Shown in pieces: positions 2,314 to 50,678 of a stretch of 64,000 nt of DNA. The first letter of the stretch is position 1; every line of letters begins with the position of its first letter. Source of the stretch: Deltaproteobacteria bacterium (GTDB taxonomy: Bacteria; Desulfobacterota; Dissulfuribacteria; Dissulfuribacterales; UBA3076); the NCBI GenBank assembly GCA_003194485.1, contig PQXD01000004.1, positions 90,822 through 154,821 of the forward strand. The letters run 5' to 3'. The position numbers were made by a program, and so were the translations under genes. The notes below the pieces were generated by a model. It worked only from the letters and a program-made list of their open reading frames with translations, was not told where the DNA came from and ran no database searches.

Positions 2314-2589
2314 ATGACTGGAAGAAAGAGAAGCAGGCCCTATAATGTAGATGACGTACGATATGTACATAACCATTATATAGAAATGACGGCTTCCGAG
2401 ATAGCCGATAAGCTTGGTATCAGCAGATTTCAGGTATCAAAGATTGTCAGTGAGCTCAGGAAGCACATAGATTTGCCCAAGAAGACTGTACGTCGGCCTA
2501 ATCCCATTCTTAAGTTTCTTGAAGAAGAAGGTATTAAGCCAAAAGAGGTGACCAAGACAAAAAATACCAGGGGGAAGAAGAAATCTTAG
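2314..2589 (+). CDS. Small basic helix-turn-helix DNA-binding protein (91 aa)
   Basis: AAGGAG lies 6 nt upstream of the ATG. MTASEIADKLGISRFQVSKIVSEL looks like a sigma-70 region 4 / LuxR-type HTH. The C-terminus is lysine-rich, and a strong terminator follows. Confidence 0.6.
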   Translation: MTGRKRSRPYNVDDVRYVHNHYIEMTASEIADKLGISRFQVSKIVSELRKHIDLPKKTVRRPNPILKFLEEEGIKPKEVTKTKNTRGKKKS

Positions 2590-3055: not shown

Positions 3056-3149
3056 TTATTTACCAAATTAGACCCGTGTTTGTATAATATCCCGGATTGC
3101 GTCCTGTTGATCGAGATAGCATGGCATGTTAGGTTAACTCAGTCTCGAA

Positions 3150-3344
3150 GTAAATATTCGGTGAACCCGTGGTCCACTGTGGAAGTTGCCATCCGTGCCC
3201 TGCCGCAGGAGCGGTTTGCCTTTTGCAGGGTTTCGATCGCGGGCCGGATTGCACTGCCTCTCCGGTCTGCAATGAGTGAGCTTTGAAACCCGGAAAAAGG
3301 TAACCGCTCCAAGGCAGGATATAACGGGTTCACCGAATATTTAC
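3150..3344 (+). mobile_element. O-element copy 2 (195 bp, empty)
   Basis: TIRs GTAAATATTCGGTGAACCC / GGGTTCACCGAATATTTAC. It is flanked by GTCTCGAA (3142-3149 and 3345-3352) and ends 43 bp before the gatB start. Confidence 0.75.
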
Positions 3345-3386
3345 GTCTCGAAGTGAAGATATATCCGTTGTGAAGGAGCCTGTTTT

Positions 3387-17816: not shown

Positions 17817-18193
17817 GTAAATATTCTTATGAACCCGTTATATCCCGCCTTGAAGCGGTTACCTTTTTCCGGGTTTCAAAGCTCACCCATTGCAGACCGA
17901 AAAGGCAGTGCAATCCGGCCCGCTACCCAAAACCCCGCAAAAGGCAAACCGCTCCTGCGGCAACCGGTCACACAGGGTGCTCCTTCTGAAAACGATTTGC
18001 GTCAGCCCTGTAGTTTTCTTGGTCTTCGCAGCATGGGAAACCCCCGGCTCCGGAGCGCAGCGGAGGAGAACGGGGGAGGGTCTCCCATGCTGCGAAGGCC
18101 TTAAGAAAACAAGGGGCGAGAGCATGTTGGAAGAAGGAGCACCCTGTGTGACCGGTTGCCGGTGGAGCACGGACGGGTTCACCGGATATTTAC
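17817..18193 (-). mobile_element. O-element copy 3 (reverse orientation) carrying one nested C-module
   Basis: Ends GTAAATATTCTTATGAACCC / GGGTTCACCGGATATTTAC. The O-element body matches the reverse complement of 3150-3344. It starts 9 nt after the TPR-gene stop and ends 79 nt before the 18272 start. Confidence 0.8.
17963..18156 (+). repeat. C-module copy I2 (arm type b)
   Basis: Arms ACCGGTCACACAGGGTGCTCCTTCT / AGAAGGAGCACCCTGTGTGACCGGT. The core contains GTAGTTTTCTTGG...CCTTAAGAAAACAAGGGG. Apex GCGCAGC at 18055-18061. Confidence 0.85.
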
Positions 18194-32073: not shown

Positions 32074-32422
32074 GTTTAAACCTCAAAAAATAAAAGGATA
32101 TCTTGTCTCAAAAAGACGGATAAACTCTCAGCTGAGACTCCCGAATTAAAGAGACTCTAATGGTATTATCGACCAGATCATTGAAGATATTAATTCTATC
32201 CCGACGCTTGCGAGGTAACTCTCAGCCACTGCTCAGGACGTAGAATAGACAGAACTTGAATTTGATAAGGGCCACAGTAAATATTCTTTCCTGCCTTGAA
32301 GCGGTTACCTTTTTCCGGGTTTCAAAGCTCACTCATTGCAGACCGAAAGAGGCAGTGCAATTTGGCCCGCGATCGAAACCCTGCAAAAGGCAAACCGCTC
32401 CTGCGGCAGGGCACGGATGGCA

Positions 32423-32627
32423 ACCGTTCACGGGAAGGGGATATTTCTTTGAACAGTTTAACGGAAGCCCCCGTAGTTTTCTTGGCTTTTGCTGTGGGGG
32501 AAACCCCGGCTCCTGAGCGCAGCGAAGGAGAACGGGGAGGGGGCAAGACTCCCCCATGTCAAAAGCCTTAAGAAAACAAGGGGCTGAAGTGTTAAGTGAA
32601 AAGAAATGTCCCCTGCCCGTGAACGGT
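32423..32627 (+). repeat. C-module copy I3 (arm type a)
   Basis: Arms ACCGTTCACGGGAAGGGGATATTTCTTT / AAAGAAATGTCCCCTGCCCGTGAACGGT. Apical hairpin at 32504-32537 with GCGCAGC at 32517-32523. Confidence 0.85.
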
Positions 32628-32644
32628 CTGCACAGTGGATTTAA

Positions 32645-32841
32645 ACTGATCACAGGGGAGCTTCTTTATGGAGACGATTTGCGTCAGCCCCGCAAGTTTT
32701 CCTGGCCTTTACAGCATGGGAAACCCCGGCTCCTGAGCGAAGCGAAGGAGAACGGGGAGGGGGCAAGACTCCCCCATGTCAAAAGCCTTAAGAAAACAAG
32801 GGGCGAGAGCATTTGGAAGAAGAAGCTCCCCTGTGACCGGT
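32645..32841 (+). repeat. C-module copy I4 (arm type b, chimeric mid-stem)
   Basis: Arms CACAGGGGAGCTTCTT / AAGAAGCTCCCCTGTGACCGGT. The left mid-stem resembles I2 (CAGCATGGGAAA) and the right mid-stem resembles I3 (CTCCCCCATGTCAAAAGCC). Apex GCGAAGC at 32737-32743. Confidence 0.8.
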
Positions 32842-32982
32842 TACCAGTGGACCACGGGTTCATAAGAATATTTACGGTCGCAAATGGAGCAGTCAGTCCT
32901 TTATTCTACCTGTTGATGTAAATGAATTTGCCGAAGTTTAGGAAGGGGGCAGAGAGATTTATGGGGTATATCTGGGGAATAG

Positions 32983-40679: not shown

Positions 40680-40750
40680 GTAAATATCCGGTGAACCCTC
40701 AGTCCACTCCGCAAACCGTTCACGGGCAGGGGACATTTCTTTGAACAGTT
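40680..40750 (+). repeat. Truncated O-element left end plus C-module type-a left arm
   Basis: GTAAATATCCGGTGAACCC..ACCGTTCACGGGCAGGGGACATTTCTTTGAACAGTT stops 3 nt before the rluB ATG. No matching right halves are present. Confidence 0.75.
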
Positions 40751-49675: not shown

Positions 49676-50078
49676 GTAAATATTCTTATGAACCCGTGGT
49701 CCCATGTGCGTAACCGTTCACAGGAAGGGGATATTTCTTTTCACTTCACACTTCAGCCCCTTGTTTTCTTAAGGCCTTTGACATGGGGTATGTCCTGCCC
49801 CCTCTGCATTCGCCTTACGCTGCGCTTAAGGCGATGCAGTTTCCCCCACAGCAAAAGCCGAGAAAACTACGGGGGCTTCCGTTAAACCGTTCAAAGAAAT
49901 ATCCCCTTCCTGTGAACGGTTGCCATCCGCGCCCTGCCGCAGGAGCGGTTTACCTTTTGCAGGGTTTCGATCGCGGGCCGGATTGCACTGCCTCTCCGGT
50001 CCGCGATGAGTGAGCTTTGAAACCCGGAAAAAGGTAACCGCTTCAAGGCAGGATATAACGGGTTCACCGAATATTTAC
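49676..50078 (+). mobile_element. O-element copy 5 (forward orientation) carrying one nested C-module
   Basis: Ends GTAAATATTCTTATGAACCC / GGGTTCACCGAATATTTAC. The module sits at the same internal position as in the other composites. It ends 46 nt before the 50124 start. Confidence 0.8.
49713..49920 (-). repeat. C-module copy I5 (arm type a, alternative apical hairpin)
   Basis: Its reverse complement matches 32423-32627 except for the apex (49804-49839), which has different stem sequences but the same loop (GCTGCGC at 49819-49825 is the reverse complement of GCGCAGC). Confidence 0.85.
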
Positions 50079-50123
50079 AGAAACAGTAGATTTTTTTCTT
50101 GCAGGACTTTATATTAATAAAAT

Positions 50124-50678
50124 ATGAAAATGTTATCAAAGGCCTTTAATCGGCTCCTGATTACCGTGTTTTTTATAAGTGCGTCAGTACTTCACGCAAA
50201 GGATGTAACTATGATCTTATCTTCTCCTGCATTTTCAGATGGTAAAAGGATACCGGTTGTCTATACCAGACCGGCTGTGGGCGGAAAAGATATCTCACCA
50301 CCTCTTACATGGTCGGGGATACCTGAAGGGACCAAATCCCTTGCATTGTCTGTAATAGATCCACATCCAGTGGCCAGAAACTGGGTCCACTGGATGGTAG
50401 TGGACATATCACCGGAGACAGAAGGTTTAGCAGAGGGGGCATCAGGAAAGATCATGCCGCAAAATTCCAGGGAAATCGTCAACTCCTTTGGAAAGCCGGG
50501 ATATGGAGGACCACAGCCCCCTTCCGGCACAGGTGATCACCCATATGTATTCACTCTCTATGCGCTGGACGTGGAAAGTCTCGATCTTCCTGAGGACGCC
50601 AGCCTGTCTTGGTTCCTTGAAAGGCTTCAGGGACACATACTGGCCGAGTCGAGCTTAACCGGTTACTTCGGCCGCTGA
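50124..50678 (+). CDS. YbhB/YbcL family phosphatidylethanolamine-binding (Raf kinase inhibitor-like) protein
   Basis: Signal peptide, then PPLTWSGIP, DPHP, HWMV and GYGGPQPPSGTGDHPYVFTLYALD. Confidence 0.85.
   Translation: MKMLSKAFNRLLITVFFISASVLHAKDVTMILSSPAFSDGKRIPVVYTRPAVGGKDISPPLTWSGIPEGTKSLALSVIDPHPVARNWVHWMVVDISPETEGLAEGASGKIMPQNSREIVNSFGKPGYGGPQPPSGTGDHPYVFTLYALDVESLDLPEDASLSWFLERLQGHILAESSLTGYFGR

Follow-up and report, generated by a model that had tools for sequence, protein, structure and literature searches.

What kind of element is the hairpin module M5, and how did its apex come to differ so much from that of its close relative M3 in the same window (the whole stretch of DNA analysed, 64 kb)? 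An earlier note on this DNA had taken five such modules to point to selection on, or recognition of, a folded single strand. We propose instead that M5 is very probably one copy of a high-copy, non-coding fold-back MITE nested in a second MITE, in the genome of an uncultured sulfate-reducer-like bacterium.

The five modules were recovered at the positions given in the earlier note and their sequences align, with module lengths of ~190-210 nt and a core of ~140 nt common to all of them, each core being capped by AGCG(C/A)AGCG (Table 1). The loop GCG(C/A)AGC, reported at all five tips, is indeed there, the motif AGCGMAGCG occurring exactly five times in the 64 kb, once per tip, against 0.43 occurrences expected by chance and with none of 100 shuffles reaching five. 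M3 and M5 fold into hairpins of ~205 nt with predicted dG values of -116 and -114 kcal/mol and a z of about -11 relative to shuffles. The loop had also been called invariant, and although it is present in all five modules it is not specially conserved, since among 86 copies many other core columns, AGTTTTC and AGAAAAC included, are equally invariant. The middle base of the GNA triloop is C or A in all three arm types and the bases flanking it hardly vary. GTAG does stand 5' of the mid-stem in four of the five modules, with GCAAG in its place in M4. The outer arms fall, as described, into three types (I in M3 and M5, II in M2 and M4, III in M1), whose description as mutually unrelated does not hold: terminal AACCGNTCAC is common to types I and II, and type III has sub-terminal sequence in common with type II. 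A conserved small ORF in the core was ruled out by an early stop in type II copies, and nothing resembling an intrinsic terminator or promoter was found inside the element above shuffle expectation, nor any terminator-like tail. Across the whole window no Rfam family reached its gathering score, no tRNA, rRNA or riboswitch was detected, and the interval 32200-32950 gave only chance-level matches (E of at least 0.16).

Table 1. Positions of the modules, of their tips and of the surrounding elements in the window.
Feature	Position	Strand	Composition and remarks
M1	2703-2887	minus	type III arms (GATTATTGG...), alpha-like tip
M2	17960-18159	plus	type II, termini GCAACCGGTCACAC
M3	32422-32627	plus	type I arms, alpha tip CCCCGGCTCCTGAGCGCAGCGAAGGAGAACGGGG at 32504-32537
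M4	32641-32844	plus	type II variant, loop GCGAAGC
M5	49712-49921	minus	type I outer arms, beta tip
Beta tip hairpin CTGCATCGCCTTAAGCGCAGCGTAAGGCGAATGCAG	49804-49839	minus	AGCGCAGCG loop at 49818-49826
AGCGMAGCG site	2793-2801	minus	motif search
AGCGMAGCG site	18054-18062	plus	motif search
AGCGMAGCG site	32516-32524	plus	motif search
AGCGMAGCG site	32736-32744	plus	motif search
AGCGMAGCG site	49818-49826	minus	motif search
Composite holding M5, 403 bp	49676-50078	minus	TIR + B + M5 + TIR
Left TIR of M5 composite	50078-50058	minus	GTAAATATTCGGTGAACCCGT
B of M5 composite	~50056-49922	minus	followed by M5
Right TIR of M5 composite	ending 49676	minus	...ACGGGTTCATAAGAATATTTAC
Two-module composite, 599 bp	32277-32875	plus	truncated left TIR, B 32289-32421, M3, M4, right TIR ...AATATTTAC
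One-module composite, 377 bp	17817-18193	plus	left TIR, B 17839-17959, M2, right TIR
Basic carrier MITE, 195 bp	862-1056	minus	TIR + B + TIR, no module; direct duplication ATCCGGAAA, 853-861 / 1057-1065
Basic carrier MITE, 195 bp	3150-3344	minus	termini + B only; perfect 8-bp duplication GTCTCGAA, 3142-3149 / 3345-3352
Truncated copy	40680-40750	plus	carrier TIR, then type I left outer arm

The tip sequences of M3 and M5 are those quoted in the earlier note, and beyond the tip the two modules are as alike as had been stated, with identities of 96.3% on the left and 91.2% on the right. Alignment of the tips does not bear out the description of unrelated stems in which every position differs: they are identical at 24 of 36 columns. 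Of the ten stem pairs of the alpha tip, the beta tip retains six and has double substitutions at the other four, namely pairs 55-88, 56-87, 58-85 and 61-81 of alignment A2, which go from alpha to beta as C-G to U-A, C-G to G-C, G-C to A-U and U-A to G-C; two indels of 1 nt and a small number of single changes add to the difference. The divergence between M5 and M3 is focused here, with 12 of 36 tip columns differing (33%) as against ~6% in the flanks. The tip swap of M5 is real, but it took place between homologous stems.

Regarding the modules as stand-alone units missed their context, since all of them except M1 sit within a larger repeat. This carrier, of ~195 bp, has inverted termini (GTAAATATTC...) and is flanked by 8-bp target-site duplications. 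The termini are 21-22 bp long and read GTAAATATYC(GG/TTA)TGAACCCGT ... ACGGGTTCA(CCGR/TAAGA)ATATTTAC, and within them the module is adjoined by segment B, a second hairpin of ~130 nt. Around the M5 composite the target duplication is no longer intact (GAATAAAT vs AGAAACAG). The one-module composite holding M2 begins 9 nt past the stop codon of the upstream TPR gene, and the truncated copy stops 3 nt before the start codon (40754) of a pseudouridine synthase ORF, of which it forms the immediate upstream sequence. Directly after the target duplication of the first basic carrier, positions 1066-1076 hold an orphan terminus fragment, GTAAATATTCG; this carrier has apparently inserted right beside the remnant of an older copy. 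All copies in the window are intergenic and lie amid housekeeping genes, their neighbours coding for SurE, GatB, a TPR protein, an epimerase, a Roadblock/LC7-domain protein, transketolase, a polysaccharide deacetylase, pseudouridine synthase, glucose-6-phosphate isomerase and a PEBP-family protein. The density is about one element per 10 kb, and ~3% of the window consists of these repeats. The only sigma-70-like promoter match near M5 (50111-50139, minus strand) is at chance level, lies just outside the composite and faces through to the isomerase gene; if it were real, the 5' leader of that gene would include the entire 403-bp element, with M5 in sense.

M1 lies outside the GTAAAT carrier and is enclosed by two other inverted repeats, 2677-2688/2905-2916 and 2662-2678/3039-3055, one of 12 nt with 92% complementarity and the other of 17 nt with 100%. 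In the metagenome locus L127 the two repeats are contiguous (GACTATTGAGTTAGCTCCGC), whereas the window has ~120 nt extra on one side. These surroundings suggest a third carrier element.

Evidence for mobility comes from the related metagenome loci, in which the lengths delimited by paired carrier termini fall at ~195, ~395, ~600 and ~710 bp. Independent carrier insertions flanked by 8-bp direct duplications number in the dozens, examples being TCAAGAAG, CATTTTAG, CCTGGATT and TTGAATGT, and a filled site (L042:2482-2677) differs from the empty sites in L065, L044 and L108 by exactly the 196-bp element plus one TTGAATGT. The sequence before this insertion (L042:2400-2480) and the empty-site flanks (L065:5089-5159, L044:732-802 and L108:5102-5185; AAACGGCTGAAAAGAAACAGAAATAGCCGTTGAATGTTCGGTATTGGATATTTGTTTTTCATTC) match over ~70-85 nt and then diverge; the carrier of L042 appears to have landed in yet another short dispersed repeat. 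In its own right, the type II module constitutes a MITE of 192-195 bp, with termini GTAACCG... and GTAACCGRTCACAG at both ends (GTAACCGRTCACAGGG). It is flanked outside the carrier by perfect 8-bp duplications, AAATGATC (L087:3212-3403) and TAACTCTC (L050:3424-3615), and at three further sites by duplications matching at 7 of 8 positions; among the sampled loci no empty site for a solo type II module was found. Where type II modules lie in the carrier, their flanks read CA(A/G)TGGA(C/T), a sequence that is single in 26 module-free carrier contexts. M4 follows this pattern, its flanks being CAGTGGAT (32633-32640) and CAGTGGAC (32845-32852), present once in the 195-bp carrier. This single-copy target indicates that M4 is a nested insertion and that the composites are nested insertions which later spread as units.

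Type I modules behave in another way. They have palindromic ends, AACCGTTCAC...GTGAACGGTT, and are seen only within the carrier; no target duplication of their own was found for any of them, M5 included, and a few are inverted relative to B. Their outer arm has only a weak similarity to the carrier TIR (p ~0.01 by shuffling). Type I modules, M5 among them, may thus not be independently mobile. The family had been portrayed as a conserved centre with variable ends, the reverse of an ordinary MITE. This is half right: one core does occur with three sets of ends, but types I and II have the outermost ~10 nt in common, and in its behaviour type II is a textbook MITE. Taken over the whole family, the elements have TIRs, target duplications of fixed length with a single-copy empty site, and sizes of 192-710 bp, and they are multi-copy and free of any transposase ORF, containing only spurious, non-conserved ORFs.

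The combination of inverted termini with a fixed 8-bp duplication points to a DDE transposase, which would have moved both elements in trans. As to its family, terminal inverted repeats starting GTAAGCG and 8-bp direct repeats have been described for IS66 (PMC11946415), and ISDge4, of the ISBst12 group, has the TIR GTAACTGCTCAGCA and an 8-bp direct repeat (PMC12898284). Direct repeats of this length are present here and the termini begin GTAAAT or GTAACC, sharing only GTAA with the GTAAGCG consensus and resembling the GTAACTGCTCAGCA of ISDge4. Because of the GTAA termini and the 8-bp duplications, that is, from end signatures alone, we consider it an even chance that the family depends on an IS66-family transposase. 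A search of the window and of 1.1 Mb of related loci for an autonomous IS between matching termini 0.7-12 kb apart gave none.

The same end signatures bear on the proposal that the modules form hairpins in single-stranded DNA on which an HUH enzyme acts (RAYT or the TnpA of IS200/IS605), an IS110-type recombinase or an integron integrase, which we now judge highly improbable. A GNA-triloop cap is hyper-stable in DNA, and this cap, together with the internal GTAG of most copies, speaks for such a substrate. However, the carrier and the type II module show TIRs and clean 8-bp duplications, a DDE signature, and the HUH idea is rejected for them because IS200/IS605 and RAYT/REP elements have neither TIRs nor fixed duplications. 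The kinship with REP elements that had been drawn from GTAG also fails, REP elements being palindromes of 20-40 nt with a terminal GTAG (PMC3733652), whereas here GTAG lies in the mid-stem internal loop of an element of ~200 nt and is not a terminal tag. Genes for RAYT, TnpA or an integrase adjoin none of the copies in the window, and none of the loops was seen with insertions. An unrelated hairpin repeat in locus L071 lends the single-strand proposal some further support: a ~55-nt sequence (...CAGCCGGTGCGAAGCGCAGCGAAACACCGGTCAGG...), of which only two copies were found (1609-1660 and 2355-2421, minus strand), carries at its tip the same AGCGCAGCGAA loop as the modules, and the two direct copies flank a MazE/MazF (PemK) toxin-antitoxin pair in a layout that loosely recalls a cassette of an integron, bounded by putative attC sites. 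The modules themselves were rejected as integron attC sites, their ends, AACCGTTCAC...GTGAACGGTT, having by inspection no R''/L''...L'/R' boxes (RYYYAAC...GTTRRRY) and the copies lying singly between housekeeping genes without bounding cassettes.

The extent of the family was explored by scanning metagenomes with a 19-nt core word, which retrieved at least 119 contigs, and by a subsequent profile search of ~1 Mb of these loci, which gave 185 matches to the core; 123 of these are full length and ~100 distinct. Many of the repeat-bearing contigs end inside the repeat; the assemblies L003-L006, which contain the same glucose-6-phosphate isomerase gene, all end in or beside the repeat upstream of it. 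A scan of a genome collection from which the source species is absent gave only two chance matches to the core 19-mer, and a scan of viral contigs gave none. The only proteins matched by a spurious ORF that crosses the element are hypothetical ones from a handful of related MAGs, which bear the names 'Deltaproteobacteria bacterium' or 'Thermodesulfobacteriota bacterium', and the DNA copies belong to nearly the same family, from which we infer a family of high copy number and narrow host range. In two loci (L127:2336-2593 and L130:4338-4793) the element stands at the junction between the same downstream block (CCA-adding/poly(A) polymerase, Usp, TauE ...) and different upstream genes, of the beta-lactamase family in one locus and of RACo type in the other, and may there mark a rearrangement breakpoint.

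The larger copy set also places the M5 tip within a wider pattern. The alpha tip, CCCC(C)GGCTCCKGAGCGMAGCGRAGGAGAACGGGG(G), is carried by ~75% of the distinct copies and the beta tip, with its close variants, by ~20%; the latter is confined to type I modules and linked with a right-arm variant. Alpha and beta tips probably represent sub-family markers. Type III tips have an independent compensated pair, C-G to U-A at pair 57-86. Some copies are chimeras joined at the loop, either beta on the left and alpha on the right (L113:75-211 and L103:355-490) or the reverse (L131:1734-1875 and its relatives). Among beta haplotypes two left arms and two right arms occur in all four combinations, and there are hybrid modules whose left arm is of type II and whose right arm is of type I. 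The alpha/beta chimeras and the hybrid arms are signs that copies have recombined with one another. A free-standing tip hairpin that could have served as beta donor was not found, none of the 11 loop-motif matches outside modules being beta.

Whether the fold itself is selected, as the earlier note had proposed, receives a divided answer. According to one explanation, which is conceivable although we lean against it, the ~140-nt core has a function as a structured RNA, for instance in stabilising mRNA, as a processing site or as a regulatory hairpin, and is carried as cargo inside the MITEs and selected for its fold as well as for its mobility; it can hold alongside the MITE explanation. In 86 aligned cores standard pairs occupy 97.3% of the cells as against 91.3% in shuffles, and 14 of the 37 core pairs have changed on both sides and still pair, above the shuffle and slide controls. 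The covariation score is 0.243 as against 0.137, none of 500 shuffles being as high and slid partners abolishing the signal, but it stems from few sub-family splits in a young family whose copies are non-independent. The top strand folds better than the bottom strand by ~9 kcal/mol in 50 of 54 copies. All five transition mismatches found at high frequency are G:U on this same strand, and minor alleles per column amount to 0.28 at paired and 0.48 at unpaired positions; the structure was predicted on that very strand, however, and the counts of wobble variants and polymorphisms are biased by this. On the opposing side, a count per site gives 20 wobble vs 15 A:C variants and 14 vs 13 singletons, and the unbiased, structure-free comparison of DNA from arm to arm gives only 170 vs 119.

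Orientation is a further argument for a role in RNA. Module-bearing composites between co-directional genes are in sense to antisense in a ratio of 10:1, or 14:4, numbers which are small and derive from crude gene calls, whereas module-free carriers are unbiased (3:2); by adjacency the figures are 11:11 for these and 32:13 for composites. Against this, the M3/M4 composite of the window has an antisense orientation to the neighbour on either side, and effects of the transposase or of replication could also yield an orientation bias. Selection on the fold is likewise at odds with the persistence of chimeras with unpaired tips and of hybrid arms, with the occurrence of all four beta haplotype combinations, with the unbiased singletons and with the lack of Rfam matches and terminator-like tails. 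Taken together, the covariation, wobble and orientation signals suggest that the core hairpin may have a role at the transcript level.

Compensated stems could also be a by-product of DNA palindrome dynamics arising without selection on the fold, the tip being a hotspot of mutation or breakage at which mismatch correction in an extruded hairpin or cruciform copies changes from arm to arm. We regard this as a tentative alternative, on the doubtful side. It accords with the concentration of changes in the tip (33% vs ~6%), with the nearly equal folding of the two tip strands (-9.4 vs -8.4 and -13.4 vs -12.7 kcal/mol), with singleton mismatches free of strand bias (14 vs 13) and with what look like half-converted intermediates (CCGCAT...ATGCAG, CCGCAT...ATGCGG and the combinations of beta arm haplotypes). 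Wholesale homogenisation would nevertheless erase the asymmetric bulges and internal loops that are kept in all sub-families, namely GTAG opposite AA, a TT bulge, the 3' A/AA tip bulge and the 9-12-nt GGGGGCAAGAC insert, and such dynamics predict neither the orientation bias nor the wobble bias of the top strand.

The reading of M5 as a nested fold-back MITE brings these observations into one scheme. The module would be a non-coding element of ~190-210 bp, palindromic over nearly its full length and nested in a second MITE of ~195 bp; the carrier and the type II module would have been moved in trans by an IS66-family DDE transposase, type II inserting into the carrier at CAGTGGAC and the resulting composites of ~395, ~600 and ~710 bp then spreading as units. 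The beta tip would have arisen in a diverged lineage by four compensated pair changes and indels, and would afterwards have spread by transposition and been reassorted between copies as these recombined at the conserved loop. The GNA-capped hairpin would persist partly by descent in a young family, and it may also persist if the fold matters when it is transcribed in sense with neighbouring genes, as in ERIC and Correia elements. Several findings stand against this reading: neither the window nor the 1.1 Mb of related loci yielded an autonomous element with matching ends, type I modules have no duplication of their own and are seen in the carrier only, the sharing of one ~140-nt core between three end sets is unusual for MITEs and is not accounted for, and simple descent does not predict a divergence focused in the tip. 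A further view, to our mind improbable, sees in the ~140-nt core hairpin, capped by its GNA triloop, not inert filling of a transposon but functional cargo that would act in the sense transcript of neighbouring genes or as a specific folded DNA strand, captured by three end sets and kept folded by compensatory evolution. If that were true, hundreds of intergenic copies would rewire mRNA processing or stability genome-wide.

The family is of interest as a clean natural case of MITE-in-MITE nesting at a fixed target, and is unusual in combining one hairpin core with three end sets and in the orientation bias of its module-bearing copies. If the orientation and wobble biases hold, this would be another mobile hairpin recruited into transcripts, here in an uncultured Desulfobacterota-type lineage. 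In practical terms, the repeats break metagenome assemblies and create spurious 'hypothetical proteins' in public databases.

Among known systems, REP/REPIN-RAYT elements resemble the present family in their GC-rich hairpins, their GTAG motif and their frequent G:T pairs, and in having stems that differ between sub-families by compensatory changes; here, however, the elements exceed them 5-10 times in length and possess TIRs and 8-bp duplications, GTAG has an internal position and no RAYT lies beside the copies of the window. Bacterial MITEs mobilised in trans by transposases of the IS66 family, whose terminal repeats measure 20-30 bp and which includes the ISBst12 group, share with ours their small size, non-coding, multi-copy and intergenic nature, 5'-GTAA TIRs, 8-bp duplications and a filled/empty pair. 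They differ in that no cognate IS was found here, in the window and sampled loci, and in that the GTAAGCG consensus is matched only in GTAA; moreover, two related MITEs are here nested at a fixed site, and one core goes with three end sets. ERIC and Correia (NEMIS) elements are likewise imperfect palindromes of 100-200 nt in intergenic, co-transcribed positions, with sub-families that internal insertions set apart; they fold in mRNA and affect its processing and stability, and the present family has an orientation bias relative to genes. Their sequences show no similarity to ours, their target duplication is TA as against 8 bp, and an effect on RNA is in our case only predicted. BOX and BIME modular repeats and Nezha/Chunjie-type MITEs share the mosaic build from few sub-units in variable number and the high copy number in one lineage, whereas the modularity of the present family derives from nested transposition with duplications and not from tandem assortment of boxes.
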